DNA of 64,000 nt from an uncultured Acidobacteriota bacterium (GCA_963701315.1 OY969603.1:2896394-2960393); one strand, 5' to 3'. Shown: positions 3,579 through 47,457, numbered from the stretch's first letter. Notes: a model not told the origin generated them from the letters alone. Numbers and translations are program-made.

Positions 3579-3665
3579 GCCGGAGTGGCGAAACTGGCAG
3601 ACGCGCGGGACTCAAAATTCCGTGTCCGCAAGGACGTGTGGGTTCGATTCCCTCCTCCGGCACCA
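3579..3665 (+). tRNA. tRNA-Leu (anticodon CAA), type II with long variable arm, CCA encoded
   Basis: Folds by hand as GCCGGAG/TG/GCG-AAACTGGCAGA-CGC/G/CGGGA-CTCAAAA-TTCCG/variable arm/GTGGG-TTCGATT-CCCTC/CTCCGGC-A-CCA. There is one T:T mismatch in the T stem. Confidence 0.9.
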
Positions 3666-3746
3666 TATAAACACCAGCTGAACAAGTGTTTCCGGCTGAT
3701 ACCCGTGGACAGGCATGTACCTGACCGCGTTCATGTCTGACACAGA
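3610..3746 (+). repeat. attL-like copy of a 137-bp direct repeat (tRNA-Leu 3' 56 nt plus about 80 nt flank)
   Basis: Repeats at 17055-17191. The tRNA part differs at 1 nt. The first 22 nt of flank (TATAAACACCAGCTGAACAAGT) are identical, then identity is roughly 85-90 percent. Confidence 0.8.
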
Positions 3747-4086
3747 ACTGACACAGTCAGCTCGCCGCAAGGAGTACAGACAGTTGTACTCTCTGTACTT
3801 GTCGGTACCCGCCCCACCGGCACCGGTGGAGCTCCGCGCTGACGCGATCCACGTCGGCCGGCCCGGAGACCGAAACCGCACGCGTCTGCTCCTGGCCTCT
3901 CGTCACGGGCTACGCGTGAGCGAGGTCGTGGCACTGCGCGGTGACTCGGTCGACGTCACGGCCGGGCGCTGGACGTCGTGGGCCTACGAACGAGTGCCGT
4001 CGAGGCATCCGCTGCGGGGCGACGAAGCGCCGGATCCCCGGGTCTCGTCAGAACGGCATCCGGGCATTACCTCGCCGCCCTTGTAG
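3715..4086 (+). pseudogene. 3'-truncated small tyrosine recombinase/integrase (FimB-like)
   Basis: ...RNRTRLLLASRHGLRVSEVVALRGDSVDV...SRHPLRGDE matches the N-terminal half of small integrases (HGLRxSE...W.D.D...HPL). The catalytic C-terminal half is absent and the ORF runs into the antisense of the next gene. Confidence 0.65.
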
Positions 4087-5303
4087 ACTGTCAGGATCTT
4101 GTCCCGCCTGCAGAGCACCCGGATGTCGGCCAAAGGATCGCCGTCAACGACAACAAGGTCCGCCTGTTTGCTGGCCTCCAGCGTGCCGATCTGGTCCTGC
4201 AATCCGAGCACGATGGCATTGTTGCGAGTCGCGCAGACGATGGCTTCCATCGGCGAGAGGCCAATCTTGTTGACATAGGCTAGGATCTCGTCGGCATTCC
4301 GCCCCATCGGCGATGTCGTGTCCCCCACGTAATCGGTGCCGCTGCCGCAGACCACACCAGCCGCGTACGCCTTCTTGAACGACACGATGTGTGCCGCCTG
4401 GACGCTCTCGGCCTTGCGCACTGACGCTTCCAGCACACCGACCTTCCGGCGGTTCTGAACGATCGCATCGACGATCGCGAACGTCGGCACGAGCGTCGTG
4501 CCTCGCTGCACCATCAGCTCGATGACCTCGTCGTCGAGGTAGATGCCATGTTCGATATTGTCCACGCCGGCGAGGACGGCGTTCTTGATCCCGCGCGTCC
4601 CTTGGGCGTGGCTGCCTGTCCGCACACCCGCATTGCGCGCCTCTTGGACGAACGCTTCAATCTCCTCCATGCTGTACTGGCACGAGGTGGGTTTGTCCTT
4701 CTCGGACATCACGCCACCGGTCGTCATGATCTTCAGCATATCGGCGCCTTCGCGAAGCTGTTGGCGGGCCGCCTTCTGCACCTCGGCCACACCATCGGCA
4801 AGCCGACTGATTTCAAGCCGTTCCGCCCATTGGACCGGCGCGAAATGAACATCGCCGTGGCCACCCGTCTGACTCACGGCCCGCCCGGATGCGACGATGC
4901 GCGGCCCGGGCACGCCGCCCTCTTCAATCGCACGCTTAGTGTAGAGCGCGGACATGCCGCCCGCGTCGCGAATGGTGGTGACCTCGGCATCGAGGCAGCG
5001 CCACGCATCCCTGGCTGCGCGGATCGCCCGCACATGCGGTTCTTCGACGATGATCCCGACCTGGTTCAGGGACCTAATGCCGAACAGGTGGAGGTGAGCG
5101 TCAATCAATCCCGGCATCACCGTCTTGCCGGCGACATCCCTGACGGTCGCGCTGGCCGGCACTTTCACCCGACCGGCGGGACCAACGTCCTGAATCCTGC
5201 CCCCGCCGATCAGCACAACGCCGTTAGCGATGGGCGTGGCTCCGGTGCCGTCGATCACGCTGCCACCGACAAGAGCGACGACACTTGCTCCCGGGCCTGC
5301 CAT
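3984..5303 (-). CDS. amidohydrolase family metal-dependent hydrolase (cytoplasmic)
   Basis: Start at MAGPGASVVALVGG with GGAG upstream. Motifs GKTVMPGLIDAHLHL, GGHGD, HAQG and GSGTD are typical amidohydrolase metal ligands. The last roughly 25 aa are non-homologous read-through into the integrase remnant. Confidence 0.85.
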   Translation of the reverse strand: MAGPGASVVALVGGSVIDGTGATPIANGVVLIGGGRIQDVGPAGRVKVPASATVRDVAGKTVMPGLIDAHLHLFGIRSLNQVGIIVEEPHVRAIRAARDAWRCLDAEVTTIRDAGGMSALYTKRAIEEGGVPGPRIVASGRAVSQTGGHGDVHFAPVQWAERLEISRLADGVAEVQKAARQQLREGADMLKIMTTGGVMSEKDKPTSCQYSMEEIEAFVQEARNAGVRTGSHAQGTRGIKNAVLAGVDNIEHGIYLDDEVIELMVQRGTTLVPTFAIVDAIVQNRRKVGVLEASVRKAESVQAAHIVSFKKAYAAGVVCGSGTDYVGDTTSPMGRNADEILAYVNKIGLSPMEAIVCATRNNAIVLGLQDQIGTLEASKQADLVVVDGDPLADIRVLCRRDKILTVYKGGEVMPGCRSDETRGSGASSPRSGCLDGTRS

Positions 5304-5368
5304 GTGGACTCCAGTTCCGAGAAGATGTACCAAGAAGCCTCGCGAACGACCGAACGGACGTCTGTCTA

Positions 5369-6060
5369 TCAGTGGGAGTCGGTGCCGGCCAGCGCTTTCG
5401 CGAACTCGGCCTGCTTCTGCCGGATCTCCTCGTCGTGGACGCCCGGCCGCACGTGATGAACCGACCGCAGGCCCGCCGCGAGGCCGCGCGCCTGGATCGA
5501 GTGATGGTCCTCGTTGTCCATGATCTCCCACTGCACCCGGGCGCTCCGCCAGTGGCGCAGCGCGAACTGCTCTCCGACCCAGGTGACGCCGCTGCCAAAC
5601 CTCAGGAGTGCCGTGAGGGGGTCTTGACCAATTTCCACACGCCCGCAGCAGATGAAGAGATCGGCTTCTCGGTCTTCCGCACCCTGCGTGCAAGGGTGCG
5701 GGGAGTGGGTCGTTCCGCTCCACATGCCGCGACGGTGGATCTTCCCTCGTGGACTCCGCGGGCCGGGCCCGTCGTCGGCGGGCCGGCTCTCTAGCCGTCC
5801 GGAGGAGGGCGGCGTGGCGGGTATCGTTGTGAGGGCAGGCGGGTGGCCCCCGAGTCGTCGTACCTGCGGCCACAGGGTGTGCCAGCGGCTGGGAACATGC
5901 CCGACAGGAGTGTCGGTCGTCGCCGCCACACGGTCGAGACCCTGGCGGTGTCGCGCGAAATGGGTCGACGCGATGTCGCTGGTGTCGAGACTGACGTACA
6001 AGATCGTTCCGGCCCCTTGGCGGCAGCCGGCGGAAAGGGCAGCGGACCACCCGCACCCCC
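5369..6060 (-). pseudogene. degraded or multiply frame-broken ORF, possibly class I glutamine amidotransferase-like
   Basis: The C-terminal part (…DLFICCGRVEIGQDPL…GVHDEEI…) reads well in one frame. Upstream coding signal appears to hop frames, for example at CAG-GTAC near 5860. No clean start codon. Family guess is weak. Confidence 0.25.
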
Positions 6061-6071
6061 GTGTCGCGGGG

Positions 6072-8492
6072 TCAGGTTCCCAGCAGCGACAGCGCGTTGG
6101 CGGTGGCCGCCCTCCGCGCCGGCAGCCACCCGCCGGCCACGAGCACGCCCGCCACGAGGGTACCGACCGCCACATAGACTATCGGATCCGAGGGATCGAC
6201 GTCGTCGAGCATCGCGGACAGGGCGGTGGCCATCGCGCGGGCCAGCATGAGCCCCACGAGGAGTGCGCAGGTGCCGGTGGTGAGCAGACGCGTCAGCGCG
6301 ACGCGCAGGAGCGAGCGGGGCGACGCACCGAGCGCGACGCGAATGCCGAACTCGCGGTAGCGCGTGCGGACCGAATACGCGGCGAACCCGTAGATGCCGA
6401 GGGCCGCGATCGCGAGCGCGAGCGCCGCGAAGGCGGAGAACCACTGTCCCCACAGCACGGGCAGCCACACGAGACGCTGGAGCACGGCCTCGAGCGTCAT
6501 CAGGTCGAAGATCGGCGCGTCGGGCACCTCGCGCTGAAGGGCGGTGCGCAGCGCCGCCGCCACCGCCTGGGGATCACCAGTCGTGCGAACGGCGAGGACC
6601 GGTGATTGCGAGGCGGCGGCGATTCGGGCCATCGGCACGTAGACCTGCGCGTCGGGCCACGCATCGATGCCTTTCAGCTGATAGGGGCGCGCCACGTCCG
6701 ACACGATGCCCGCCACCGTGAGCCAGTCGTCGGCTGACGTACTGCCGGCCGGCCGCATCCGGCGGCCGACAGCCTCCGCTCCCGGCCACAGGCGATGAGC
6801 CAGCGTGCGGCTCACGAGCGCCTGCGCGTCACCCCGTTCGATCTCCTCCTGCCGCAGCCAGCGGCCCGCGACCAACGATAGTCCCAGGACCGCTGGAAAG
6901 TCGCGTGTGCCCGCCATTCGGGACGCCAGCACGCCGGTCGAGCCCGTGCGAGGCTGCCCTTCGGCCTCGAGCAGCAGGGACGCGAACCCGACGCTGCTTG
7001 CCGGCAGCCGGTCGGCCGCGGCGGCTTGCTCGATGCCAGGGATGGACTGGCACCTGGCCAGCAAACGGTCGATGACGGCGAGCCGCTGCAGCACGTCAGG
7101 ATACCGCGCGGCTGGTAGTGAGAGGCGGAGCGTCAGGCAGTGAGCCGTGTCGAGACCGAGCGTGGCACCCCGCGACACGACCGCACTCCGGACGAGCAAC
7201 AGCGCGCCCACGAGCAGCACGATCGAGGCCGTCACCTGGAAACCGAGGAGGGCGTGCCTCAGCCAGGCGCCGCCCGAGCGCCTCTGGCTCTCGCTCTCGC
7301 CGCGTTGCACGGACACGGCATTCACCGTCGACCCGCGCAGCGCTGGCGCGAGGCCGAAAGCGAGGCCGGTGAGCAGGGCGGTGATGGCGATGGCCACGAC
7401 GCTCCGGACATCCATCGAGAGGTCGATCCACCGGGGGACCTGGAACGGCACGATGGCGACGATGGCATCGTCCAGCCACGCGGCCACCAGCAGCCCGAGG
7501 AGGCCGCCGAGCCCTGCCAAGGCCACGGTTTCGACGAGCGTTTCCCTGATCAGCAGTCCGCGCGACGCCCCGAGGGCCGCCCGGATCCCCATCTCCTGTC
7601 GGCGCCCGATGGCGTCGGCCAGGAGGAGGTTCGCGACGTTCGCGCAGACCAGGAGCAGCACCAACAGCACGCTCACCGCCAGGCCGACGAGCCCCGCGCG
7701 GGCCGCGGGCGGCAGCATCTCGTCCCGGAGCGGCCGGACGCACACGCTCCAGTCGCGGTTCGTCTGCGGATAGCGCCCGGCCAGCTGCGAGGCGACCGCC
7801 TGCAGGTCAGTCCGCGCATCGTCGAGCGACCAGCCGGGGCGGAGACGAGCCACGACGCCCAGCCACCGGGCATCGCGGGGCGTATGCCGCACGTCGAGCG
7901 CCAGCGGCGTCCAGATCTCGGTCCATTCCGGGAATTCATAGCGCCGCGGCATGACGCCGACGATGGTGTGCGGTGTGCCGTCGATCCGCAGGTGCCGGCC
8001 GACGATGTGCGGGTCCGCTTGGAAGCGACGCTGCCACAACACGTAGCTGATCACCGCGACGGGAGGCGCGCCGGCGATGTCCTCGCCCTCCTCGAACCCG
8101 CGGCCGAGCAGCGGCGCGCCGCCCAGGACGTGGATGAAGCCCGCCGTGACCCGGGCGCCGGGAACGTGCTCAGGGCGGTCGTCGCCGCCGATGCTGAAGG
8201 GCCGCGGTTCGTAGGCCGCCATCCCCGCCAGTCCCCGGTTGTTGCGCCGCCAGTCGTCGAAGTCGGGCGGCGACACCAGCGCCCAGGTCTTGCCGAGGCG
8301 GGGCTGGGACTCCCAGAGCGACACGATGCGGTTCGGGTCGCCAAACGGCAGCGGCCGCAGCACCATGGCGTCGAGGCTGCCGAACGTGTGGCCGACGACC
8401 CCGATGCCGAGTGCGAGAATGCCGACGATACTGGCCGTGAACAGGGGGTTGCGACGCCAGCGCCGGACGGCCGCGTGCAGGGTGAGAGACAT
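6072..8492 (-). CDS. ADOP-family duplicated FtsX/MacB-like ABC permease
   Basis: 807 aa from MSLTLHAAVRRWRRNPLFTASIVGILALGIG. Two FtsX-type 4-TM modules are separated by large periplasmic domains. The C-terminus ...GWLPARRAATANALSLLGT is typical of the Acidobacterial ADOP family. Confidence 0.85.
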   Translation of the reverse strand: MSLTLHAAVRRWRRNPLFTASIVGILALGIGVVGHTFGSLDAMVLRPLPFGDPNRIVSLWESQPRLGKTWALVSPPDFDDWRRNNRGLAGMAAYEPRPFSIGGDDRPEHVPGARVTAGFIHVLGGAPLLGRGFEEGEDIAGAPPVAVISYVLWQRRFQADPHIVGRHLRIDGTPHTIVGVMPRRYEFPEWTEIWTPLALDVRHTPRDARWLGVVARLRPGWSLDDARTDLQAVASQLAGRYPQTNRDWSVCVRPLRDEMLPPAARAGLVGLAVSVLLVLLLVCANVANLLLADAIGRRQEMGIRAALGASRGLLIRETLVETVALAGLGGLLGLLVAAWLDDAIVAIVPFQVPRWIDLSMDVRSVVAIAITALLTGLAFGLAPALRGSTVNAVSVQRGESESQRRSGGAWLRHALLGFQVTASIVLLVGALLLVRSAVVSRGATLGLDTAHCLTLRLSLPAARYPDVLQRLAVIDRLLARCQSIPGIEQAAAADRLPASSVGFASLLLEAEGQPRTGSTGVLASRMAGTRDFPAVLGLSLVAGRWLRQEEIERGDAQALVSRTLAHRLWPGAEAVGRRMRPAGSTSADDWLTVAGIVSDVARPYQLKGIDAWPDAQVYVPMARIAAASQSPVLAVRTTGDPQAVAAALRTALQREVPDAPIFDLMTLEAVLQRLVWLPVLWGQWFSAFAALALAIAALGIYGFAAYSVRTRYREFGIRVALGASPRSLLRVALTRLLTTGTCALLVGLMLARAMATALSAMLDDVDPSDPIVYVAVGTLVAGVLVAGGWLPARRAATANALSLLGT

Positions 8493-8981
8493 AGTCACAG
8501 ATCGCCCTCGGGTGAAGACTGCACGGCGTCCGTGCAAGGGCCGTTCCCGGCGTCCGTCTGCAGGGATCCGGTGAGCGGCGTTCCGCCCGGCTGGCCGACT
8601 GTCCGTTTCCGGGACGGGTCGATACCGCCCCCGGACGGGTTGCGCGGCGCCCCCGGTCGTCCGCCCACTTGGTGTCGCATCGCACGCGCGAGCTCTCCGA
8701 CTCGCGACACCGGTGCGCGTCTCACCCAGGTGGGAAGGACTCGTTAAGGCGGGGACAATCGACCCACTGGGGCAGGGCGGATGGAAGAACCCGCGGCGGC
8801 CCGCCAATGGATGCTTGATTGGGCCAGGCCTTCCGGAGACGATGGGAGGTTCCCGGGCGGACCCGGGGGCGGTTTTGTCGACACTCGCCGCGGCCCGCGG
8901 GCCGTCGCGGCGTCGGCGTGCTGCCGGGGCCGGTCGGGCGGCCGGTGGGACCGGGAACGCCCGCTTGGAGGAACGAACGTC

Positions 8982-11085
8982 ATGCTGATCCCGTCGAGCA
9001 GCGGATTCCACGGGTGGCGCTGGCGTGCGGCCCTGGGGGCCGCCACGGCCATCGCGTGCACGTGTTTCGTCGTCGCCGGAACCGGTGCCCGGACACAGCT
9101 GCCGTCATTCGCGAGGGGAATCGACCTCGACGGCATGGACCGCGCGGTCCGGCCGGGGGACGACTTCTTTGCGTTCGCCAACGGGACCTGGGTCAAGAAG
9201 ACCCCGATTCCCGCCGACCGAAGCGGTTACGGCATCGACACGCAGGTCGAGGAGGTGACGGCGCAGCGCACGGCCGAGTTGATCACGGCGACGGCGGCCG
9301 GGCAGGCCGCCGCCGGGTCGGAGGCGCAGAAGATCGCCGACTACTACGCCTCCTTCCTGGACGTCGCGGCAATCGACGCCAAGGGCCTCGCGCCGCTCCA
9401 ACCGACGCTGGATCGCATCGCGGCCATCGCGAGCCGGCGTGATCTCGCGCGGTACATCGGCGGCCGCCTGCGGGCGGACGTCGACATCCTCAACGCAACG
9501 AACGTCTACACCGACAACCTGTTCGACCTGTGGATCGCCCAGGACCTCGACAACCCAGCGCGCTACGTGCCCTTCCTGGTCCAGGGCGGGCTCGGCATGC
9601 CCGACCGTGACTACTACCTCGATGCCTCGCCGCGCATGGCGGAGCTGCGCAGCAAGTACGTGACCCACATCGCCGCCGTCTTCGGCCTGGCCGGCATCGC
9701 GGACGCTGGCGCGAGGGCGGAGCGCGTCCTCGGCCTCGAACACCGGATGGCCGAGGTGCACTGGAGCCGCGAGGACACGAACGAGGTGACCAAGGGCAAC
9801 AACCACTGGTCCCGGGCCGATCTGGACGCGCGCGCTCCCGGTCTCGACTGGGCGGCCGCGCTCGAGGCGTGCGGGCTGGGCGGGCAGCAGGCCTTCGTCG
9901 TCTGGCAGCCCAGCGCGATCGTGGGCCTCTCGGCGCTGGCCTCGTCCGAGCCGCTCGAGACGTGGAAGGACTACCTCGTCTTCCACGCGATCGACCACGC
10001 GGCGGCCTACCTGCCCCGCGCGTTCGACAAGGAGGCATTCTCGTTCTACGGCACGGCCCTCTCGGGCGTGCCCGAGCAGCGGGAGCGGTGGAAGCTGGCC
10101 GTGGACGCCACGAGCGCGGCGCTCGGCGACGCGGTCGGGAGGCTGTACGTCGGCAAGTACTTCCCTCCCTCCGAGAAGGCCCGCGTCGAGGCGATGGTGC
10201 GCAACATCCTCGTGGCGTTCCGCGCGCGGATCGAGCGATTGTCCTGGATGGCGCCCGAGACCAAGGCCCGGGCGAAGGCCAAGCTCGACGCGCTGAAGGT
10301 CGGGGTCGGCTACCCGGACCGGTGGGTCGACGACTCGGGACTGCGGATCGTCAGGGGCGACGCGCTCGGGAACATCGAGCGCGTGGAGCGATTCGACCTC
10401 GAGCGGAACCTGCACAAGCTGGGGCAGCCGGTGGACCGGTCCGAGTGGGTGATGACGCCCCAAACGGTCAACGCCGTGAATCTGCCCGTGATGAACGCCC
10501 TCAATTTCCCCGCCGGGATCCTGCAGCCGCCCTACCTTGACCCCGGGCGGCCGGAGGCCATGGACTACGGCGCAACCGGGGCGACGATCGGCCACGAGAT
10601 CAGCCACAGCTTCGACGACCAGGGCGCGCTGTTCGACGCCGCAGGCCGGCTGAGCAACTGGTGGACCGAGGCCGACGGGACCCACTTCCAGGCGTCGGGC
10701 GCGGCGCTCGCGAAGCAGTACGACCTCTACCGCCCGTTCCCCGACGCTGCCGTCAACGGGAGGCAGACGCTCAGCGAGAACATCGCCGACGTGGCCGGGC
10801 TCGCCGCCGCCTACGACGCCTTCGTGGCGTCGCTCAAGGGCAAGCCCGCTCCCGTCGCGCAGGGGCTGAGCGGCGACCAGCAGTTCTTCCTCGCCTTCGC
10901 CCAGAGCTGGCGGTGGAAGGCGCGTGAGGCGGCGTTGCGGCGCCAGCTCATCACCGACGTCCACGCGCCCGAGCAGTACCCGGGCCGACGCCGTCCGGAA
11001 CATCGACGCCTGGTACGGCGCGTTCGACGTGAAGCCGGGCCAGGCCCTCTACCTGGCCCCCGGTGACCGCGTCCGGGTGTGGTGA
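8982..11085 (+). CDS. M13 family zinc metallopeptidase (PepO/neprilysin-like), secreted; apparent 1-nt indel near 10978-10983
   Basis: GGAGGA RBS and an N-terminal hydrophobic anchor. HEISH zinc motif and GENIAD-like SENIAD. After EQY the frame must shift by 1 nt to recover the canonical tail RADAVRNIDAWYGAFDVKPGQALYLAPGDRVRVW*. Confidence 0.85.
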
Positions 11086-11222
11086 GGGCGGCGGGCCGCG
11101 ACTCGCGGGCTCGCCTGGAAACGACCGGTCTCCGGTCCACACGCGCGCGTCCTTCTGGTCCCAGGTGTTTTCCGGGGCGAGGCTCTCGGGCCGCCGCGCT
11201 GACCGGCAGGACACGGTCCCGG

Positions 11223-11605
11223 TCACCGGGACGTTGTGCGCACGGTCATGGCGGACGGGAGCGGATCTCGCCGCTCGCGCGACATCGGGGAGGATGATCT
11301 GCCCTTCCCGTCGCGCGCTCTTGATGACCGCGCTCTTGTCGTCTTCCTCCGACCGGTGCTTGCCACAGCAATCGGTTCGATGCGACCATCGGTGTTGGCC
11401 GCGGCCCGCCAGCGCGCCTCGCCGTCCTGACGGGTGGTCTCCTCGTCGAAACGACCGGCCAGCACCATGATGTCGATGTCGCGCCACTCGTCGGCGCTGC
11501 CCCGACCGTACGAGCCGAACAGCCCGCCCGCGCGGCGAGTCCGAACTCGCTCTGGAGGGTTCGGAGGCACCGCTTGACCGAGGCGACTACTCGCTCATCA
11601 GCCAC
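11223..11605 (-). pseudogene. MNT-type nucleotidyltransferase (minimal NTase, TA-associated), frame-broken at least twice
   Basis: GTG start MADERVVASVKRCLRTLQSEFGLAA. The core LFGSYGRGSADEWRDIDIMVL is in a second frame and EDDKSAVIKSARREGQIIL in a third. Confidence 0.6.
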
Positions 11606-11705
11606 TGGAACACCTCGCTGGCGTTGGTGATCGGCCCGCGCGCCTGTTCCGCGGTCAGCGTCGGTCCCCGGGGTCTCGGGATACCGGCCGGCCTGGTAGA
11701 AGGCA

Positions 11706-11843
11706 ATCAGGCGGGAGAGGGAACGGTGGTGGCGCGGCCGTCGGGATGGCGGTGCTGGGAATCCCGCTGGCGGACCCCGGAGAAACCTACCCGCTCGAGC
11801 ATCGCAACAACTTCACGAGGCTTGAGAACAGGCGGTTTCGTCA
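11706..11843 (-). pseudogene. HicA-like mRNA interferase toxin, interrupted
   Basis: VTKPPVLKPREVVAMLERVGFSGVRQRDSQHRHPDGRATTVP matches the HicA core (…G.H..H.HPDGR..TVP). A premature stop follows, with plausible continuation in other frames. Confidence 0.45.
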
Positions 11844-11846
11844 CGG

Positions 11847-12053
11847 TCAGGCTACCCGGACCGCCTGAATGCCGACGAATTCCGCTTCGGGTACCTGGCC
11901 ATCTTCGAGCAGTATGGAGACAACGTCACGCAGGTTGGCGTTGAGCTCATCGAGGGTTTCAGCCTGGCTGTGGGCGCCAGGCATTCCAGGCACGTATCCG
12001 ACGTACAGGCCCGCGTTCAAGTCGCGCTCGACGACGGCGGTGAACTGCTTCAT
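11847..12053 (-). CDS. HicB-family antitoxin-like protein (short form)
   Basis: MKQFTAVVERDLNAGLYVGYVPGMPGAHSQAETLDELNANLRDVVSILLED is the typical HicB N-terminal domain. It lies directly upstream of the HicA-like ORF. Confidence 0.7.
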   Translation of the reverse strand: MKQFTAVVERDLNAGLYVGYVPGMPGAHSQAETLDELNANLRDVVSILLEDGQVPEAEFVGIQAVRVA

Positions 12054-12799
12054 GAGCGTAACTCCCGTCCCCGTAACATAGCAGGAAACGCGAAGCCGGC
12101 TCCATCAGGTGAACCGGAGCTGCGTCGTCTGCGCTGCGTTCTGAATCACCCGGCCGCGGTCTGGTTCCCGGGCGCAAGGTGGGCGTAGCGCTTGCAGGGT
12201 CGAGGCGAAGGGGCCGCCTACACTCTCGCGTTACAGGTTACGGACGTGAGGGCGCCATGACTGGGGACGCGTGCGTGGGACCGGGCGAACACGTCGTTGG
12301 TGAAGGCGCCGCCCGTGGCGCCCCGTGCGGCAGATGGCGACCGAGCCGTCCGCGAGAACCAGCGGTCCCCGATGCAGAGCGCCCCCCTGTTCAGCACTTT
12401 GAATCGCTCGTGCCGGGTCCCGGCCCGACACCCCCACGGGGTCGATCCTTTACCCGCCTCGTCTGAGCGGTCGTCAGCGTCATCCCGGACGGAGAACTCG
12501 TCGGCCACCTCGTGATCCTGCTTTGTCGACTGACTGGGTGATGGGCTTGTCGACCGGCTTGTCGTTCAACTTGCTGATCGACCGGCGGGGTCCGGGTGGC
12601 GGAGCGTCGGCGGTGGTCATTCGCTGCGCGGTCGCCCCCAGCATCCCGGCAGCGTTGAGGCAGTGCCGTTGGTGAACGATGCCGGCGCATTGGACGGCCG
12701 ACAACCCGTACCGTCGTGCGATCTGCGCGGAGTTCCCCGCGGAGTTCCCCGTTGCCCGGGCGTGCCCCGGGGGCCATAATCCTCAAACAGGGTGAGGAC

Positions 12800-13569
12800 A
12801 TGCATCTTCGCAGCATGAGCGTGTTTCTTCTGGCGGCTGCCGCGACGCTGGCGGCTGCCGACAATCCCTTTGTCGGCAAATGGAAAGAGAATCTCGCTCA
12901 GGACGACTACGTCGACGCCACCGTCAGCTACGAACAGACACCCCCCGGTGAGATGCAGGTGACCGCAGAGGGTCACTCCTACAAGTTCAGGATGGATGGA
13001 AAGGAATACCCCACCGGCTTCGGCTCCCTCGTCGCTTGGAAACAGGTTGATGAGAGCACATGGGAAACGGTCCGCAAGACCAACGGCATCCTGGACTGGG
13101 TAGCCACGACCAGACTCTCGCCCAATGGCAAGACCCTGATGGTGACTGAGAAGGGGAAGCGGTCGGACGGCGAACCCTTTGAGGACAACGAACCTACCAG
13201 CGCGTCGCCGGTGGGCCTGGGCTCGCCGGGAAGTGGAAGCTGACCCAGTGGAGATTCAGTTCCGCCTTTGTGATGGAGATTGCCCCCTACGAGGGTGAGG
13301 GCATCACCTGGAGACTTCCCGGGAACGCCACCGTGAACGCCAAGTTTGACGGCATAGATTACACCGTGACCGGCCCGAGCACGCCCGCCGGCTCCACGGT
13401 GGCGCTGAAAAGGACCGGCCCGCGATCCTTCGACGAGGTCCTGAAGATCAAGGGTAAGGTCGTGTACACGGGCACCGTCACGGCTTCTGCTGACGGCAAG
13501 ACTCTGACTGAGGTCGTGACACCTTCTGGCGCCAACGAGAAGACGAAGACCGTGTACGACCGCCAGTAA
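12800..13569 (+). CDS. secreted lipocalin-like domain protein, apparent 1-nt frame break near 13190-13195
   Basis: Signal peptide MHLRSMSVFLLAAAATLAAA, then NPFVGKWKEN. A second FVG/GKWK-type repeat (LAGKWKLTQ) and the C-terminal half are in the -1 frame (track ORF 13270..13569). Confidence 0.6.
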
Positions 13570-13639
13570 TCGACAGCCCAAGGCCGCTGCCGCCGCCCGC
13601 GCCCCGTGGTCCGGACGCGGACCACGGTCACGCCCACGT

Positions 13640-14035
13640 CGCTCAGCGAGCGCGTCATGCGGCGAGGCGAGAGGCGGGCGCCGAGGGCTAACCGCGCGAA
13701 GCTGACCAGCTCGTCCGCCAGGAAGAAGGCCACTGGTTTCGACCGCATCACGCGCCCCCGCTCGGCATGGAGCGTGAGCTGGCCGGGCGGGATCGCGTGT
13801 TTGGCGATCGTCTCGGCGATGAAGGTCTCCGCCAATTCAGCGCCTTCGCGATGCGCGATCATCCACCCCACGACGTACCGGCTGAAGACGTCCAGGATCA
13901 CGTAGAGATAGAAGTAGGTCCACTTGGCCGGGCCGAGCAGCTTGGTGATGTCCCAGGACCACAGCTGGTTCGGCGCGGTGGCCAGTAACTCGGGTTTCTG
14001 GTACGCCGGATGGACCAGTTGATCGCGCCGCTCGC
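13640..14035 (-). pseudogene. IS3/IS481-type transposase (rve integrase core) fragment
   Basis: Translates to ...PNQLWSWDITKLLGPAKWTYFYLYVILDVFSRYVVGWMIAHRE...LTLHAERG, the DDE/rve core start. Both ends of the gene are missing and no IRs are present. Confidence 0.7.
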
Positions 14036-14069
14036 TCGCTCATGAATACGGGCTATTCCCCCCGACCAT

Positions 14070-15284
14070 TCAAGCTTCCAGCAAGTCGTCAACGGGCCTG
14101 GCTAGGAACTCCTCCAGCGCGATGCCGTTTCCTCCGACGAGCAGCGTGCGCCGCGGCTTGAAAGCCTCCGCAAAGGCGCCTAGCCCGGGAAGCGCGACGG
14201 GCGCACGGCCGCTCTTCACTTCGATCGCGATGACGGTGCGGCCGACACGGACCACGAAGTCCACCTCGCGGTTGCCTTCGCGCCAGTAGAACAGTTCGCA
14301 TGCGCCGCCGGCCGCCGCATTGGCGAGGTGCGCGCCTACAGCGGACTCGACCAGTCGTCCGCGGAATTCTCTGTCGGCCCGTGCCTCGGCGGGCGAGAGG
14401 CCGGATTGCGCGGTCATGAGCGCCGTGTTCAGCACCTGCAGCTTGGGGCTCGACCCGCGCTGGTGCACGGCCTCACCGGCATACTTCTGAAGGCCGGTGA
14501 GCACCCCCGCGCCGCCGAGCAGATCGAGGTAGTGCGCGAGCGTCGTCGAGTTGCCAGCGTCCTGCAGTTGACCGAGCATCTTCGTGTACGAGAGCACCTG
14601 GCCCGAGTAACGGCACCCGAGTTCGAACAACCTCCGCAGGAGCGCGGGCTTGTCCACCCGCGTCATCAGGAGGACGTCGCGCGCGATCGTGGTCTCAATC
14701 AACGCATCGAGGAGGTAACGCCGCCAACGTCGCGGGTCGTGGACGAGCGGTGCAGCTCCGGGATACCCGCCGAAGTACAGATACTGCTCCAACGAGAACC
14801 CGAAGGCCGCACGCATTTCCGCGTACGACCAATGCGGCAGGTGCACCACTTCAAACCGGCCGGCCAGACTGTCTGTCAAGCCCCGCCGCATGAGCAGGGG
14901 CGCCGAGCCGAGCAGCACCACCTTCAGCGGACGGCGGGCCCGCGAGTCCTCGTCCCAGAGCCGCTTCACGGTCTCTGACCAGCCCGGGATCTTCTGCACT
15001 TCGTCGAGGGCCAGCACCGCGCCGGTCCTGCCGGCGTCTGCCGCCGCCATCCGTGCCCGCTCCCACTGGGCGGCGAGCCAGGCAGAGTCACCCAGGGTCG
15101 GCTCGTCGGCGGAGACGAAGACGCTGGCGGCACTCAGTCGGCCCAGCACCTGCTCGACGAGGGTGGTCTTTCCCACTTGGCGGGCGCCCGCCACGATCTG
15201 CAGGAAGCGGCGTGGCTCGCCCAACCTGGCCGCAAGGATGCCGGCTTGGCTGCGCTCGAACGGGGAGCTCGTAGGGGTACTCAT
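14070..15284 (-). CDS. AAA+ ATPase with DUF4143-type C-terminal domain
   Basis: Walker A GARQVGKTTL and Walker B VLALDEVQ. The C-terminal ...ELFYWREGNREVDFVV...AIEVKSG (restriction-endonuclease-like fold) is typical of the AAA_14/DUF4143 family. Confidence 0.85.
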   Translation of the reverse strand: MSTPTSSPFERSQAGILAARLGEPRRFLQIVAGARQVGKTTLVEQVLGRLSAASVFVSADEPTLGDSAWLAAQWERARMAAADAGRTGAVLALDEVQKIPGWSETVKRLWDEDSRARRPLKVVLLGSAPLLMRRGLTDSLAGRFEVVHLPHWSYAEMRAAFGFSLEQYLYFGGYPGAAPLVHDPRRWRRYLLDALIETTIARDVLLMTRVDKPALLRRLFELGCRYSGQVLSYTKMLGQLQDAGNSTTLAHYLDLLGGAGVLTGLQKYAGEAVHQRGSSPKLQVLNTALMTAQSGLSPAEARADREFRGRLVESAVGAHLANAAAGGACELFYWREGNREVDFVVRVGRTVIAIEVKSGRAPVALPGLGAFAEAFKPRRTLLVGGNGIALEEFLARPVDDLLEA

Positions 15285-15695
15285 TGTCGTGAGTAAGTGT
15301 GCTCAACGCTCTGAGTAAAGTCAAGCCGCCGGCACCAGTTCCTGTCATTCGGTGATGACACCCATCAAGAAGGGCTCGAGCGCGAGGCCCGCGGCTCGCC
15401 GGAGGGCGTCGATGATCGGTCGGATGGGGCTGTCAAGCACGCGGGGGAGGCGCATTGGGCCGGCGGCAAGGGCACGACGGCGGGCCGGTCATCTCCCATA
15501 TTCTGACCGCCGGCGCCGAATCTCAAACCTAATATTGCGGAGCTTTCTGCTATGCTTCGGGCTCGCTGCATGGAGTCCTCACCGGGCCAGCGTGGCCACC
15601 GCCGCCGCCTTGTGTTCGGCAGCTGTTCGCGAGCGTCTGAAAGCGCGTGATTTTGGACGGCTGTCGACGGCGGCGTGAGATGGGGGCGGCCACCC

Positions 15696-15845
15696 TTACT
15701 TGGGTGGCCGTTGCTGTCTCTGGTGCGCCTGGGCGTCGCGGCGGCGGTAGCTCTCGCCGTCGATCGCGACGATCTCCGCGTGGTGCGTGAGCCGATCGAT
15801 GAGCGCGACGGCACAGCCGGCGTTGGGAAAGACGCTGTCCCAGTT
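15696..15845 (-). pseudogene. IS21-family IstB helper ATPase, C-terminal fragment only
   Basis: ...[33 protein letters not shown] matches the IstB C-terminus (AxLDRLxHHxxxxxxxGxSYR). Everything upstream is replaced by the antisense of the next gene. Confidence 0.6.
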
Positions 15846-16875
15846 GGTGGCGCGGGCCATCCACCGCGCCTCGGCGCGCGCCCGGCGGGCCTTGATCAAG
15901 GTCAACTGTGCGGCACTTGCGGAAGGGCTCGTCGCCTCGGAGCTGTTCGGTCACGAGAGAGGGGCCTTCACCGGCGCGACAGAAAGGCGCCGGGGGCGGT
16001 TCGAGCTCGCTGACGGTGGAACGATCCTTCTCGACGAGGTCGACGACCTGCCCCACCCCGTGCAGGTGTCCTTGCTGCGCGTCCTTCAGGAAGGCGAGTT
16101 CGAGCGTGTGGGCGGGAGCCAGACCCTCAGGACCGACGCTCGAGTGGTGGCGGCGACCAACCGAAACATCGAGGAAGCGGTGCGCGAGGGGAAGCGTCGG
16201 GAGGACCTCTTCTTTCGACTCAACGTGTTTCCTATCCACTTGCCGCCCCTGCGCGACCGAGTCGACGACATTCCTCTCATTGCCGAGTATTACGCGCACT
16301 TTCACGGACGCAAGATGGGGAAAGCCATCCAGCGGATCGCGCCTGAAGCCATGGCCATGCTTGTACAGTACCCGTGGCCAGGCAACATCCGAGAGCTCCA
16401 GAATGTCGTGGAACGGGCGATCATACTCGCGCGAGGCCACGTCCTCGACGTTTCCGATCTCGAGATCCCGGGCCTCCGCTCCAGCGGGCCCAGGTTGACG
16501 AGACCTCCCGGCGGACCGAACGCGGAGCGTCAGCGGATCGAGGAAGCCCTTTCCGCCAGCCGGGGCAGGGTCTCGGGCCCCGAAGGAGCCGCCGAGGCGC
16601 TCGGGATCCCACCGAGCACGCTCGAATCGCGCATCCACCGCCTAGGGACCCGGCAGGAACTAACGGTCGCCTCAACCAAACTGGTCGCGGGTTCTACACC
16701 GCGACGAGCGTTGGACCTGGCGCCAGAAGGCGGGGCATGCCCGCGGCCGCGTAGACCTTCGGTTCGTCCAGCGTCCCGTGGGCGAGGAACTCGACGACTC
16801 GCATCGAGCTGGTCGCTTCAGGCCGCCGGACGGCGAGACGAGCCGGACGGCCATCGCATCGCTCGGACAGGGTGA
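15787..16875 (+). pseudogene. sigma-54-dependent transcriptional activator, N-terminally truncated and C-terminally fused to foreign sequence
   Basis: Homology starts inside the AAA+ domain ([10 protein letters not shown]...VNCAAL, GAFTGA, ILLDEV, RVVAATN). Walker A and the receiver domain are missing. A Fis-type HTH ([20 protein letters not shown]) is present, and the ORF then reads on into a permease-tail duplicate. Confidence 0.75.
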
Positions 16876-16915
16876 GGGCGCGAACGCCCATCGCCGGCTA
16901 TTCGGGGCCAGCGCT
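16822..16915 (+). repeat. duplicate of the 3' end plus about 40 bp downstream of the APC permease gene (partner at 37342-37430)
   Basis: About 90 bp at roughly 80-85 percent identity by eye, including GGCGCGAACGCCCATCGCC(G/C)GCTATTCGG. The encoded tails [17 protein letters not shown] and AAGRRGEAGGDRIARIG* are alike. Confidence 0.65.
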
Positions 16916-17054
16916 GTGTTGACACAGAACTGACACAGACGAGGAGGCATCAGGCGGCACATGCGGGTACATGGTAGGCAGCGAATCGGCGATTTTCCTT
17001 GGATAAGCGCCTCTTTGTACCCACTGGTACCCACCCGTCCAGCGGGTGCTTCCA

Positions 17055-17191
17055 ACTCAAAATTCCGTGTCCGCAAGGACGTGTGGGTTCGATTCCGTCC
17101 TCCGGCACCATATAAACACCAGCTGAACAAGTAGTTACGGCTGATACCTGTGGCCAGCCATGTACCTGCCCGCGTGCATGTCTGACACGGC
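17055..17191 (+). repeat. attR-like partial tRNA-Leu (3' 56 nt from the anticodon loop) plus flank; direct repeat of 3610-3746
   Basis: ACTCAAAATTCCGTGTCCGCAAGGACGTGTGGGTTCGATTCCGTCCTCCGGCACCA followed by TATAAACACCAGCTGAACAAGT. The 5' half of the tRNA is absent. Confidence 0.8.
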
Positions 17192-17318: not shown

Positions 17319-17342
17319 ATAGCATGATAGCATGCTGGCATG
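17319..17342 (+). promoter_or_regulatory. candidate antitoxin operator: tandem ATAGCATG x2 containing palindrome AGCATGCT, abutting the start codon
   Basis: The sequence GATAGCATGATAGCATGCTGGCATG ends in the ATG of the AbrB-like gene. No separate SD is visible. Confidence 0.35.
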
Positions 17343-17660
17343 AAGCAGACGGCAGCGGCGGTTGACGATCGGGACGATCGGATCGAGATCAAGGTGGTGG
17401 GCAAGAGTGGCCAGATTTCGTTGGGAAAACGCTATGCGGGCAAGACGCTTCGCCTCGAGCGTCGGCAAGACGGGACGGTCGTGCTGACGGCCGTGGCGAT
17501 GGTGCCAGAAAGCCAGCTCTGGACGCTCCAGGAACCGCACCGTTCCCGAATCGAGCGGGCCCTTGCCTGGGCAGCTCAGACAGCAGCCGCGGAAACGGAC
17601 CTCGACGATCTCGTGAAGCCTCGCACCGCGAGAGCCGGACGCAAACGTGCCCGCGTCTGA
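17340..17660 (+). CDS. AbrB/MazE/SpoVT-family antitoxin-like DNA-binding protein
   Basis: ...IEIKVVGKSGQISLGKRYAGKTLRLERRQDGTVVL is a looped-hinge-helix (SpoVT/AbrB) motif. It overlaps the downstream gene by 14 nt. Confidence 0.7.
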   Translation: MKQTAAAVDDRDDRIEIKVVGKSGQISLGKRYAGKTLRLERRQDGTVVLTAVAMVPESQLWTLQEPHRSRIERALAWAAQTAAAETDLDDLVKPRTARAGRKRARV

Positions 17661-17964
17661 GAACCGGCTCCGCCTCGATCTCAACAGTCCGGAGTTTCAG
17701 GACGTCTTCTGTCGTCTGGAACCCGACGATCTGAAGCAGGTCGTGAGCGCGCTCCGTCGCCTGCGCGAGCTGGATTGGAACGGCCTATACCGACATCCGG
17801 GATTCCGGTGGGAAGCGATCGAGCATCTGAAGGCCGGTGGCGGTGGGAAGGTCTACTCGCTCCGTCTCAGTCAGCGCATTCGTGCTGTCGGAGTCCGGGA
17901 TGGAGATCTTCTCCGACTCATTTCCCTCCACCCGGAGCACGATTCCACGTACGAACGTCCGTAA
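17647..17964 (+). CDS. RelE/ParE/HigB-superfamily toxin-like protein
   Basis: C-terminal ...HLKAGGGGKVYSLRLSQRIRAVGVRDGDLLRLISLHPEHDSTY fits the RelE-fold pattern (YS.R...yR..f......i.......H..Y). The gene overlap is typical of a TA pair. Confidence 0.55.
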   Translation: MPASENRLRLDLNSPEFQDVFCRLEPDDLKQVVSALRRLRELDWNGLYRHPGFRWEAIEHLKAGGGGKVYSLRLSQRIRAVGVRDGDLLRLISLHPEHDSTYERP

Positions 17965-18480: not shown

Positions 18481-19287
18481 CTACGCGGCCTTCGCCCCGG
18501 CGTATACCGCCCACGGCGTTCGGTAGCCGAGGGACTGGTGAGGCCGGCGGTCGTTGTAGAACTGAAAGTACCGGGCCAGCTGCCGACGCGCCTCGGGCAC
18601 CGTGCCGTAGTCCTTCAGATAGATCTCTTCGTACTTCACGGAGCGCCAGAGGCGTTCGACGAACACGTTGTCCAGCGCCCGCCCGCGGCCGTCCATGCTC
18701 ACCCGCGCCCCGGCGGCTTCCACGCGGTCCGTGAACGCCGTCGCCGTGAACTGGGCGCCCTGGTCCGTGTTGACGATCTCGGGGCGGCTTCGGCCCAGGG
18801 CAGCCTCGAGCGCGTCGACGCAGAACTGGCCATCGACGGTCACCGACAGCTCCCACGCCAAGACGTCGCGGCTGAACCAGTCCAGGATCGCGACGAGGAA
18901 CACGAAACCGTGGCGCAAGCGCACATCCGTGATGTCGGTGCTCCACACCTGGTCGACCCGCGTGATCGGGACGTCGCGCAACAGATACGGATACACCTTG
19001 TGCCCCGGATGCGGTTCACTCAGGCGCGGTGTCGGGCCGACCGCCTCCAACCCCATTTCCCGCATCAGGCGCTGGACGTGCTTCCGATTCACGGCGTGCC
19101 CCACGCGATCCTGCAAGGCCACCTGCATCCGCCGCGAGCCGTAAAACGGCGTCGCGGTGTACTGCTCGTCGAGCAGGCGCATCACGTCCAGGTCCGCCTC
19201 GCTGACCACCGCCGGCCGGTAATAGAACGAGGACCGCGGCAGCTCCAACAGGGCACACTGCTGCGCGACGCTCAGCCTCGGGTGCAT
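18481..19287 (-). CDS. IS3-family transposase OrfB (DDE/rve integrase core)
   Basis: ...VWSTDITDVRLRHGFVFLVAILDWFSRDVLAWE...NTDQGAQFT...DNVFVERLWRSVKYEEIYL carries the D, D and E motifs. Its frame is open upstream to 19338, overlapping orfA. Confidence 0.9.
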   Translation of the reverse strand: MHPRLSVAQQCALLELPRSSFYYRPAVVSEADLDVMRLLDEQYTATPFYGSRRMQVALQDRVGHAVNRKHVQRLMREMGLEAVGPTPRLSEPHPGHKVYPYLLRDVPITRVDQVWSTDITDVRLRHGFVFLVAILDWFSRDVLAWELSVTVDGQFCVDALEAALGRSRPEIVNTDQGAQFTATAFTDRVEAAGARVSMDGRGRALDNVFVERLWRSVKYEEIYLKDYGTVPEARRQLARYFQFYNDRRPHQSLGYRTPWAVYAGAKAA

Positions 19288-19309
19288 CGGGTCGACGACG
19301 GCGCGTCGG

Positions 19310-19600
19310 TCAGCGGTCGACCAGGTCGTGTTTTTTCTTCAACCAGTCCAGCTCCATCTTGAGCTGGCCAATTTCCTGACAGAGCGCCGCCTTGAGCGTC
19401 TCGTGGTCGTCGACCTCCGTGTCGCGGCGGGTGGCGAAGACCTCGGGCAGGGCCGCCACCGCCTGCTTCTTCCACTTGGCGACCTGAATCGGATGCACCT
19501 CGAAGGCCGACGCCAACTCGCTCAACGTCCGGTCGCCGCGCAACGCCGCCACGGCCACTTTCGCCTTGAACTCCGCACTCTGCAATCGTCGTTTGGCCAT
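19310..19600 (-). CDS. IS3-family transposase OrfA (HTH)
   Basis: MAKRRLQSAEFKAKVAVAALRGDRTLSELASAFEVHPIQVAKWKKQ... is the classic IS3/IS911 OrfA. An A6 run lies near its 3' end (plus-strand T6 at 19331-19336). Confidence 0.9.
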   Translation of the reverse strand: MAKRRLQSAEFKAKVAVAALRGDRTLSELASAFEVHPIQVAKWKKQAVAALPEVFATRRDTEVDDHETLKAALCQEIGQLKMELDWLKKKHDLVDR

Positions 19601-24487: not shown

Positions 24488-24579
24488 GAGACGTCCAACC
24501 GCGCGTGGAACGGCCCGTATAGCAGCACCGCCACTTCGCCCCATTCGCCCGAGACGTCCAACCGCGCGTGGAACGGCCC
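24488..24579 (+). repeat. two perfect 29-bp direct repeats separated by a 34-bp spacer (CRISPR-like geometry, only 2 units)
   Basis: GAGACGTCCAACCGCGCGTGGAACGGCCC occurs at 24488-24516 and 24551-24579. No third unit and no cas genes are in the window. Confidence 0.6.
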
Positions 24580-24820: not shown

Positions 24821-24985
24821 GACGCTCCACAATGAGGGGCGGACAGGCTCCGAAGGCTGGAAACGACGCCCGGGCGCGACATGGCGCAGTGCGGAATCGG
24901 GGATCTGGCCGACCTTCAGGGCCAGCCCTTTCAGCCTCGGACGCCGGTCAGGTCGGCGCTGGTCTCTGAGAACTCGAGGCCACCA

Positions 24986-37393: not shown

Positions 37394-37724
37394 GGCGCGA
37401 ACGCCCATCGCCCGCTATTCGGAGCAGCGCCGGTAGAGTCGAGGAAGCGCGCGGTGACGTGCAGGTCCGGCGGCGCCGAGTGCGAGCGACGTCTTTCGTT
37501 GCCACCCTCGCCGAGAAGACCATCGGTCCGTTTCGCCTCTCCGCTCATCGAACTGGACGTGCGGATTTCCCGCATCCAGCTCTCGGACGGGTTTCACGTC
37601 AAGGCATGCACGCGCGGCGCCGCGGGCCAGAGACTGGAGAGAGAATGCCCGCGGCTCGGGCTCACGTCCGACCGTCTCCGCGGTGCCGCCGTTCTGAAGA
37701 AGATGCCCGCAGCCTGCGCCGTGG

Positions 37725-42904: not shown

Positions 42905-43364
42905 CTAAGGATCATTTTAGGGGTCTTCACCGTTCCTTGTTGGTTGCACATCAAGAGAAGACACCATGGGATAGCCAACGGCCGGCACCTCCGCCGTGGG
43001 GAACCGGGCCCCGGGCGGGCCGTTCGGTCCAGCGGGATGTGGCGAACAGTCGGTGCGATGGCAACCCACGGGGCGGCGCGCGCCGACTTCCAGGACCAGT
43101 ACCCGGGAAGCCCAGGCGGGTTGCGCCCGGTGTCGGCGTTAGTTCGGTTCATTCTCCACCGGCGACGGGCGCGGGTCGTCTAGAGAAAAGCGCTAGGAGC
43201 GCGTCCGAGTATTGGCCGACGCGCTCCTCAGGAGCGTGTCCGAGCCAGTGACGGGCGTGCTCATGATTCTCGTCATCCTCGCGCGGCCTGCGATCGCGTC
43301 GCCGAGGGCGGTGACGGGCCCCGCGTCCGTGAATGACTGCTAGCCACGCGTGGCTCGCCGCTGC

Positions 43365-43943: not shown

Positions 43944-44121
43944 ATGGAGAGCTCTCCATAACGAAGATTATGGTGAGTGCCGCGTTATGCTGCGCGCGGG
44001 CGATGCTCGACGGAATCACGGCCATGTTAGAGGCCGTCGTCCGTTGATCTTCTTTCCATAATCCGGTCTCGGGTGCATTGTCGTTCCTCCACCAGCAGAA
44101 AGGAGGAGCGATGTTTTCGAC

Positions 44122-47359: not shown

Positions 47360-47457
47360 TCCGATATGGGAAGCCGGCGATCGCCCCTGCCAGCAGATCG
47401 TTCCGGAAGATCACGATCTCCGCCGCAGCTTCCCATAACGCGGCACTCACCATAATT

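Follow-up and report, generated by a model that had tools for sequence, protein, structure and literature searches.

The interval from 3.6 to 17.2 kb of the window (the whole 64,000-nucleotide stretch of DNA from an uncultured Acidobacteriota bacterium that was analysed) is probably what is left of an integrative element that became fixed and then decayed; we put the likelihood at roughly 60%. As an immobilised genomic-island remnant of a known kind, the finding itself is ordinary. The evidence comprises a long direct repeat with its edge at the anticodon loop of a tRNA gene, a truncated recombinase gene and a fragmentary interior (Table 1). A tRNA-anchored island had been proposed in the sequence-only reading of this DNA. 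That proposal gained support from a displaced, same-orientation tRNA fragment 13.4 kb away and from the truncated recombinase, while the accompanying view of a repeated 18-mer as arm-type integrase sites was weakened.

The anticodon loop is a frequent crossover site for tyrosine integrases that target tRNA genes. Since the 5' border of this loop is where the repeat begins, the best reading is an island made by an integrase, with the tRNA regenerated and a tRNA fragment displaced. A tyrosine integrase would have inserted the element into tRNA-Leu(CAA) by crossover at the anticodon loop. The attP of the element would have brought its own copy of the last 56 nt of the tRNA plus at least 22 nt of trailer, and this copy would regenerate a working tRNA at the left end. 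The original 3' part would thereby have been displaced by 13.4 kb, to drift as a pseudo-fragment. At a later stage, a deletion or rearrangement would have severed the recombinase gene near codon 105 and left it tail to tail with an amidohydrolase gene. The right third of the interior is a patchwork of gene fragments. The element would no longer be able to excise itself.

Table 1. Features of the tRNA-Leu(CAA) region, with positions counted from the first nucleotide of the window.
Feature	Position	Strand	Evidence or remark
tRNA-Leu(CAA), intact, encoded CCA	3579-3665	+	ARAGORN; Rfam tRNA, 50.9 bits; putative regenerated integration target, attL side
Direct repeat, left copy, 137 nt	3610-3746	+	56 nt of tRNA (anticodon loop to CCA) plus 80-nt trailer
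Conserved trailer module	3666-3745	+	ends in heptamer GACACAG; holds recombinase starts 3715 and 3733
FimB/FimE-type tyrosine recombinase ORF, truncated	3715-4086	+	homology to about nt 4027 (...HPLRGDE)
18-mer, left copy	3739-3756	+	two GACACAG heptamers 11 nt apart; overlaps recombinase codons 3-8
Amidohydrolase (Xaa-Pro dipeptidase-like), cargo	3984-5303	-	Pfam Amidohydro_1, 2e-50; NCBIfam; start codon
Junction: recombinase homology ends, convergent amidohydrolase 3' end begins	4027-4065	.	alignment ends at residue 104; NCBIfam/Pfam amidohydrolase match ends at residues 411-412 of the 3984-5300(-) translation
ADOP-family duplicated permease (MacB_PCD/FtsX x2), cargo, typical acidobacterial	6072-8492	-	TIGR03434, 702 bits (cut-off 622); Pfam; start codon
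M13 (PepO-like) metallopeptidase, cargo	8982-11066	+	Pfam Peptidase_M13_N, 5e-111, and Peptidase_M13; start codon
IS3-family transposase fragment (rve core, partial)	13359-13901	-	Pfam rve, 29-89 only; NCBIfam transpos_IS3, 237-297/369
AAA_14/DUF4143 ATPase	14070-15284	-	Pfam
Sigma-54 enhancer-binding protein, 5'-truncated, AAA+ and HTH_8 only	15787-16875	+	Pfam Sigma54_activat from position 36; NCBIfam from NifA position 233
Permease-end copy, 93 nt, ~85%	16822-16914	+	covers the final 17 codons and stop of the amino-acid permease gene 35984-37393 and about 40 nt beyond
18-mer, right copy	16921-16938	+	117 nt before the displaced fragment
Displaced tRNA-Leu(CAA) 3' fragment, attR side	17055-17110	+	no ARAGORN call
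Trailer, right copy	17111-17191	+	ends GACACGG; then unrelated DNA
AbrB-like/RelE-like pair	17340-17964		after right trailer copy
IS3	18481-19600		after right trailer copy; LamG protein follows

The tRNA-Leu(CAA) gene and its displaced 3' fragment

A single tRNA was detected in the whole window by ARAGORN, with Rfam in agreement, and the 3' part of this tRNA-Leu(CAA) gene recurs together with its downstream flank in the same orientation at 17055-17191. The longest direct repeat of the window pairs 3610-3743 with 17055-17188 (93% identity, ungapped). Mismatches number one in the 56 nt of the tRNA part (position 3652), none in the 22 nt directly after it and ten in the last 59 nt, which agrees with the 137-bp repeat as it had been described from the sequence. 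This uneven spread (1/78, then 10/59; Fisher p = 0.001) indicates separate histories for the two parts of the repeat, the first probably an attP/attB identity block and the second homologous arms of greater age.

Identity starts at A3610, the final base on the 5' side of the anticodon stem, one base before the 7-nt loop. The edge of the fragment thus lies at one of the canonical crossover sublocations, which are the anticodon loop and the T-loop/acceptor junction. Beyond the repeat, identity between the two loci drops to the random level of 25-30% (30% on the upstream side), so the right copy lacks the tRNA 5' half and does not represent another tRNA gene. With this half absent and no ARAGORN call, the alternative raised in the sequence-only reading, that an independent full tRNA gene had been misread, was ruled out. 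The fragment matches the gene at 55 of 56 positions. Its single substitution (C3652 to G) places G opposite G and breaks a T-stem pair in a cloverleaf read by eye, as expected for an unselected fragment.

It is an accepted principle that a tRNA 3' fragment starting at the anticodon loop marks insertion by a tyrosine integrase, and Islander maps islands by a regenerated target together with a displaced fragment (PMC4383910). An anticodon-centred attP was assigned to 2083 of the 3919 Islander islands (PMC4383910). The region described here resembles such islands in its intact tRNA at one end and same-orientation, anticodon-loop 3' fragment at the other end of the interval on the same replicon, in the tyrosine recombinase beside the tRNA and in its typical length of ~13 kb. 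It differs from them in that the recombinase is half a gene that scores below the Pfam threshold, other mobility genes are lacking and the repeat extends 80 nt beyond the tRNA end.

The truncated recombinase gene and the interior

Directly 3' of the tRNA, in the same orientation, lies an ORF that covers only the N-terminal ~105 codons of what would be an enzyme of ~200 aa of the FimB/FimE type. The ORF matched Pfam Phage_integrase (PF00589) at profile positions 23-57 only (E = 0.004; 17.3 bits, cut-off 27.1) and the NCBIfam 'tyrosine-type DNA invertase' PRK09871 at positions 16-80 of 198 (E = 3e-6), the latter scoring far under the 222-bit cut-off on account of the truncation. Its relatives in phmmer searches, which place it in this family, are ~190-215 aa long, consist of the catalytic domain alone and have the motifs RHGLRVSE and HPLRGDE in common with it. 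The alignment stops at HPLRGDE (~codon 104), and the HxLRH and Tyr motifs are missing. The ORF is thus a family member without the complete catalytic set (R, HxxR, Y), and no C-terminal half was found nearby by tblastn. These results bear out two earlier claims: a FimB-like tyrosine recombinase fragment adjoins the intact tRNA, as both NCBIfam and the relatives indicate, and the integrase is dead. The gene beside the tRNA is a pseudogene, with the junction at 4027-4065 as the probable site of the deletion or rearrangement that inactivated it. The only possible start codons lie inside the trailer (Table 1).

Known FimB/FimE-type invertases flip a promoter segment between short inverted repeats, and FimB-type enzymes work on short sites without arms. 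The ORF is like the invertases (PRK09871) in its best family match, the size of its relatives and the two motifs. It differs from them in its truncation, in abutting a tRNA and in being linked to direct repeats, which lie 13 kb apart. Short inverted repeats that might bound an invertible segment were sought among the 25 longest inverted pairs, none of which reaches the recombinase locus. In 52 viral loci, none of the closer relatives adjoins a tRNA gene or tRNA fragment, and a tRNA gene is present in the locus of just two distant relatives (33-43% identity). This result counts against the island reading, as does the invertase type of the recombinase, which has no arm-binding domain. We infer that the FimB-type enzyme itself, not a lost integrase, made the insertion.

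The interior consists of ordinary acidobacterial genes and gene fragments. Apart from the recombinase and IS3 fragments it contains no mobility genes, and no excisionase, replication, transfer or phage genes were found in it. The ADOP permease and the M13 peptidase have GC3 values of 0.85-0.91; the cargo looks like native acidobacterial DNA. Both this and the absence of excisionase, replication, transfer and phage genes count against the island reading. The partial IS3 transposase, the cut sigma-54 activator and the copied permease end are signs of decay. The activator ORF runs on into this copied 3' end, and near 37.4 kb, where the permease gene ends, no similarity to the att region was found beyond the 93-nt copy.

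The 18-mers, the trailer and the right-hand flank

The 18-mer GACACAGAACTGACACAG occurs exactly at two positions of the window, both on the plus strand (0.07 expected by chance), and a search of the window revealed no further copies within three mismatches. Numbered from the ATG at 3733, its left copy codes for recombinase residues 3-8. The right copy precedes the repeat start by ~117-134 nt and the left copy follows it by ~130-147 nt, a placement about the core that would be compatible with attP arms. An additional weak motif is common to 3789-3821 and 17011-17043 (p about 0.02). Arm sites are recognised by an N-terminal arm-binding domain of the integrase (PMC8138268). With a repeated motif in both arms at ~±120-150 nt of the core and in direct orientation, the region resembles lambda-type systems. 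It differs in that the catalytic domain starts at ~residue 35, which leaves too few residues for an arm-binding domain, and full-length relatives measure 190-215 aa. The exact pair on both sides agrees with the proposal of arm-type sites, which is weakened because this type of recombinase has no arm-binding domain. The two 18-mers were presumably protein-binding sites of the old attP arms.

A third copy of the trailer was found in the nearest relative (L083), whose flank proteins are about 79% identical (MFS) and whose sequence reaches 247 nt past the tRNA. There it follows the same tRNA in a syntenic order (URO-D/MFS/DUF6370/tRNA-Leu(CAA)) with 84% identity, ungapped, and its end is again the heptamer GACAC(A/G)G. 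Left and right copies agree at 71 of 80 positions, and each agrees with L083 (12086-12165) at 67 of 80, all ungapped. Upstream of the tRNA, the intergenic DNA shows 61% identity to that of L083, with many gaps. Downstream of the heptamer the DNA differs among all three copies, and no similarity was detected between the DNA after the right trailer and that after the L083 trailer. Since a relative as distant as this one also has it behind that tRNA, the trailer may be native flank, not element DNA, a further point against the island reading. It yielded no Rfam family, no covariation (RNAalifold) and no promoter- or terminator-like feature. A search of genome contigs with the MFS transporter gave at least 80 loci (best listed identity 73%, the source genome not being listed), none of those listed with the tRNA or trailer, and the same held for the 80 loci returned from metagenomes. 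Among the MFS/DUF6370 relatives examined the tRNA synteny was present in L083 only, the others having no tRNA at this position. A metagenome pattern scan for the trailer gave no match, nor did scans of viral sequences for the trailer or the 3' part of the tRNA, and plasmid and phage BLAST with the trailer plus recombinase fragment returned nothing useful.

The DNA to the right of the second copy is typical island cargo, with a toxin-antitoxin-like pair, an IS3 and a low-GC LamG gene. The 47 kb downstream contain no third tRNA fragment and no second FimB-type recombinase. Like a tandem array formed by accretion at one tRNA, the region has island-like cargo here and trailer homology (84% over the last 58 nt) of the kind that an older related element would leave, and the trailer after the right copy presumably belongs to such an element. 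It differs from an array in having one fragment and no second integrase. A second, integrase-less tandem element, as suggested in the sequence-only reading, agrees with the homology past the tRNA end and with the cargo; it is plausible but unproven because no third tRNA fragment follows.

Competing explanations and implications

If the 80-nt module were the chromosomal flank of tRNA-Leu(CAA), the DNA from the right copy onward would be original chromosome and a single island, without a tandem element, would suffice; the element would have imported a diverged tRNA 3' half plus trailer, for example from another host. We consider this unlikely. The syntenic position of the module in L083, its ungapped conservation there compared with the gapped upstream DNA, and the lack of a third tRNA fragment and second integrase downstream all speak for it. 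Yet the module holds the sole possible recombinase starts, which ties it to element function, no RNA family, covariation or promoter- or terminator-like feature points to a native role, and typical island cargo follows the second copy. Moreover, the three trailer copies are nearly equidistant; the right copy is therefore not clearly an ortholog of the L083 module.

The common end of the trailers suggests another possibility, that the heptamer or 18-mer is the true recombination site. The FimB-type recombinase would then act at TGACACAG at the trailer end, and the element would be the 13.2 kb between the 18-mers (3739-16938), the right tRNA fragment and trailer being a relic of an earlier, nearly all-deleted insertion. 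All three known trailers diverge at this heptamer, as at a reused junction, identical copies of the 18-mer in direct orientation lie at the two ends, the recombinase ORF begins at the heptamer, and short armless sites suit FimB-type enzymes according to family knowledge and the domain layout. This explanation is nevertheless very unlikely: it needs an extra, otherwise unsupported earlier event to account for the tRNA fragment that lies 117 nt beyond, the chromosome would have to provide the recombinase start codon, and the anticodon-loop edge of the large repeat is left unrelated to the element. In addition, tyrosine recombinases use inverted half-sites around a spacer, and the heptamer repeat is direct. 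Equally little credence is given to an origin without any site-specific event, by segmental duplication or ectopic (for example IS-mediated) homologous recombination with later loss of the 5' part. The window is rich in IS and mobile DNA (IS3, the IS fragment in the interval, a recombinase-in-trio element) and the interior is native-looking in composition, but the copy is in direct orientation and begins exactly at the anticodon loop, where a random breakpoint would seldom fall, a recombinase gene lies at the tRNA, and no IS end is present at either repeat boundary.

For annotation, the finding marks a variable region linked to a tRNA gene, in an acidobacterial lineage that has been poorly sampled. 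That a distant relative has the trailer conserved behind the same tRNA is a new point, and the 80-nt module after tRNA-Leu(CAA), with its sharp heptamer edge common across genera, is a lead. It might belong to an island family of Vicinamibacterales-like Acidobacteriota in which a minimal, armless FimB-type recombinase serves as tRNA-Leu(CAA) integrase, and in which the trailer carries the recombinase start and ends in a GACACAG heptamer that is a reused recombination junction for the exchange of different DNA; this is a speculative idea with a low probability. If the trailer does function as an attachment arm or attachment site for enzymes of the FimB type, invertase-type recombinases would act as island integrases.

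Direct repeat at the tRNA-Leu(CAA) gene

The tRNA-Leu(CAA) gene (3579-3665, + strand) is the sole tRNA gene that ARAGORN detected in the 64-kb window, and Rfam agrees. The longest direct repeat of the window, 3610-3743 versus 17055-17188 (93% identity, ungapped), originates within it. The sequence-only reading had described a 137-bp repeat with one tRNA mismatch, 22 identical nucleotides and subsequent drift. This was confirmed by base-by-base counts: the left and right copies differ at one position in the 56-nt tRNA part, at none in the next 22 nt and at 10 in the last 59 nt. The uneven spread of mismatches is significant (Fisher p = 0.001). In the flanks beyond the repeat, identity between both loci drops to the random level of 25-30%.

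Identity starts with the final base of the 5' anticodon stem (A3610) and spans the loop CTCAAAA (anticodon 3613-3615) up to the encoded CCA. That the right copy is a second tRNA gene was ruled out because the tRNA 5' half is absent. The only difference in the tRNA part, C3652 to G in the right copy, places G opposite G in the T-stem of the manually read cloverleaf, which would fit an unselected fragment. A regenerated tRNA gene accompanied by a displaced 3' fragment in the same orientation is the accepted mark of tyrosine-integrase insertion. Among the islands mapped by Islander, 2083 of 3919 have an anticodon-centred attP site (PMC4383910).

Recombinase fragment, 18-mer and interior of the interval

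ORF 3715-4086 matches Pfam Phage_integrase at profile positions 23-57 only, and the NCBIfam 'tyrosine-type DNA invertase' at positions 16-80 of 198. A HMMER search of 1.84 billion representatives yielded 383 relatives, mostly of 100-240 aa; complete relatives comprise 190-215 aa and carry the FimB/FimE-like C-terminus HPHMLRH…GH.NI..TV.YT. The alignable part of the window ORF extends from its N-terminus to HPLRGDE (residue 104, about nt 4027), where homology ceases; tblastn with a full-length relative as query found no C-terminal half anywhere nearby. The integrase fragment beside the intact tRNA gene is thus dead, as had been proposed. Since recombinase homology ends at about nt 4027 and the family match of the convergent amidohydrolase at about nt 4065, the junction that killed the recombinase falls within 4027-4065. 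In 52 viral loci encoding relatives, none of the closer relatives had a tRNA gene, or a T-loop fragment of one, as its neighbour; a tRNA gene was in the locus for just two distant relatives (33-43% identity).

The 18-mer GACACAGAACTGACACAG, composed of two GACACAG heptamers, is present in the window in exactly two copies (3739-3756 and 16921-16938, both + strand), close to the left and right boundaries as previously noted. No further matches with up to three mismatches were found in the window (0.07 expected by chance). Arm sites are read by the arm-binding domain of the integrase (PMC8138268). The proposal that the 18-mers are arm-type sites holds as far as the presence of both copies is concerned but conflicts with the enzyme type, in which the catalytic domain begins at about residue 35 and so leaves an arm-binding domain no space.

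Features of the interval between the two repeat copies (window coordinates)
Feature	Position	Strand	Remark
Amidohydrolase	3984-5303	-	family match
ADOP-family permease	6072-8492	-	exceeds NCBIfam cut-off
M13 peptidase	8982-11066	+	
Stretch without family match	~11.1-13.3 kb		holds split secreted-protein ORF pair (12716-13569)
IS3 transposase fragment	13359-13901	-	
AAA_14/DUF4143 ATPase	14070-15284	-	
Sigma-54 activator	15787-16875	+	without N-terminal part
93-nt copy of permease gene 3' end	16822-16914	+	gene at 35984-37393

The interval lacks excisionase, replication, transfer and phage genes, and GC3 of its large genes (0.83-0.91) matches that of the left flank; the interior thus amounts to cargo of native appearance and debris. 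The 93-nt repeat (~85% identity to 37340-37430) comprises the last 17 codons, the stop codon and ~40 nt downstream of the amino-acid permease gene. The truncated sigma-54 activator ORF takes its C-terminus and stop codon from this copied end, which finishes 6 nt short of the right 18-mer. ORFs 12716-13243, with a signal-peptide-like N-terminus, and 13270-13569, both without family match, resemble the two parts of a single secreted protein that a frameshift or stop has divided.

Elsewhere in the window, at 43216-48258, an IS transposase gene (- strand; DUF772 N-part 47209-48177, DDE_Tnp_1 C-part 43365-43898), with candidate IS inverted repeats at 43216-43244 and 48230-48258, is interrupted by a 'recombinase in trio'-like element. 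The latter consists of three consecutive tyrosine recombinase genes (44122-45360, 45357-46358, 46337-47359) flanked by perfect 23-nt inverted repeats (43967-43989, 47434-47456). A perfect 29-nt direct repeat (24488-24516 and 24551-24579, spaced 63 nt), unreported by Tandem Repeats Finder, lies just upstream of a large BNR/sortilin-like gene (24881-28237). The sulfatase-family ORF 28530-29888 may be 5'-truncated, as its Pfam match begins at profile position 142; an intact sulfatase that carries a TAT signal is encoded at 61718-63499. The DUF433/DUF5615 gene pair at 53100-53685 has an arrangement that is generally considered a toxin-antitoxin-like module.

Trailer downstream of the tRNA gene

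The closest relative of the flank genes, on a 44-kb JGI contig (L083; 3300035696, Ga0374055_0011375), shows only 79% identity, with the gene order URO-D / MFS / DUF6370 / tRNA-Leu(CAA) conserved. Its trailer, the 80 nt directly after the tRNA (12086-12165), is identical to each window copy at 67 of 80 positions (84%, ungapped), as against 61% with many gaps for the intergenic stretch upstream of the tRNA. The three trailer copies terminate in the same heptamer (GACACAG, GACACGG, GAAACAG), past which they share no similarity. The trailer is therefore either under functional constraint or shared horizontally. It contains no RNA-family match, covariation, or promoter- or terminator-like site, and the only codons at which the recombinase ORF could start (3715, 3733) fall inside it. 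The L083 contig ends 247 nt past the tRNA; assembly contigs often break at variable regions. No other fetched relative locus contained the tRNA or the trailer.

The genes of the window, among them the ADOP permease and CarboxypepD_reg TonB receptors, and best matches labelled Vicinamibacterales indicate an acidobacterial source (Acidobacteriota), probably Vicinamibacterales-like. Two short contigs (L081, L082) in the Logan assembly of run ERR11594402 code for identical copies of two window proteins, the AAA_14 ATPase and the MFS transporter. This run therefore contains the strain itself or a near-identical one and is a possible source of junction reads.

Origin of the interval

We favor, with a probability of about 0.6, the interpretation that 3.6-17.2 kb is an island which an integrase made at an anticodon-loop site and which is now dead and decayed. 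The block of 78 near-identical nt would then represent the former attP/attB identity, and the 84%-identical rest of the repeat would be older homology, possibly from an arm of an earlier related element. The latter follows the proposal of a second, tandem element, and the DNA after the right copy, with a small-ORF pair, an IS3 element and a lower-GC LamG gene, does look like island cargo. The two overlapping small ORFs (17340-17964; 106 and 105 aa) resemble, by eye, AbrB/MazE-type antitoxin and RelE/ParE-type toxin, and have no Pfam or NCBIfam match. The usual test for a tandem island array asks for a fragment and an integrase for each member. As neither a third tRNA fragment nor a second integrase was found, the tandem idea fails it.

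That the older homology is instead a conserved native trailer appears unlikely. The sharp boundary common to the trailer copies would be accounted for if the heptamer or the 18-mer were the actual recombination site of a FimB-type enzyme, but this reading requires additional events and seems very improbable. Equally improbable is a duplication lacking site-specificity, which is disfavored by the boundary in the anticodon loop. As an integrase-made island, the locus is a degraded new example of a very well known kind, unusual only in that the recombinase next to the tRNA is of the invertase type and that a conserved trailer ends at a heptamer boundary, both points being based on three sequence copies. 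The reading that FimB-type enzymes act as island integrases would gain support from intact recombinase genes of ~200 aa that begin at ATGTCTGAC in several genomes.
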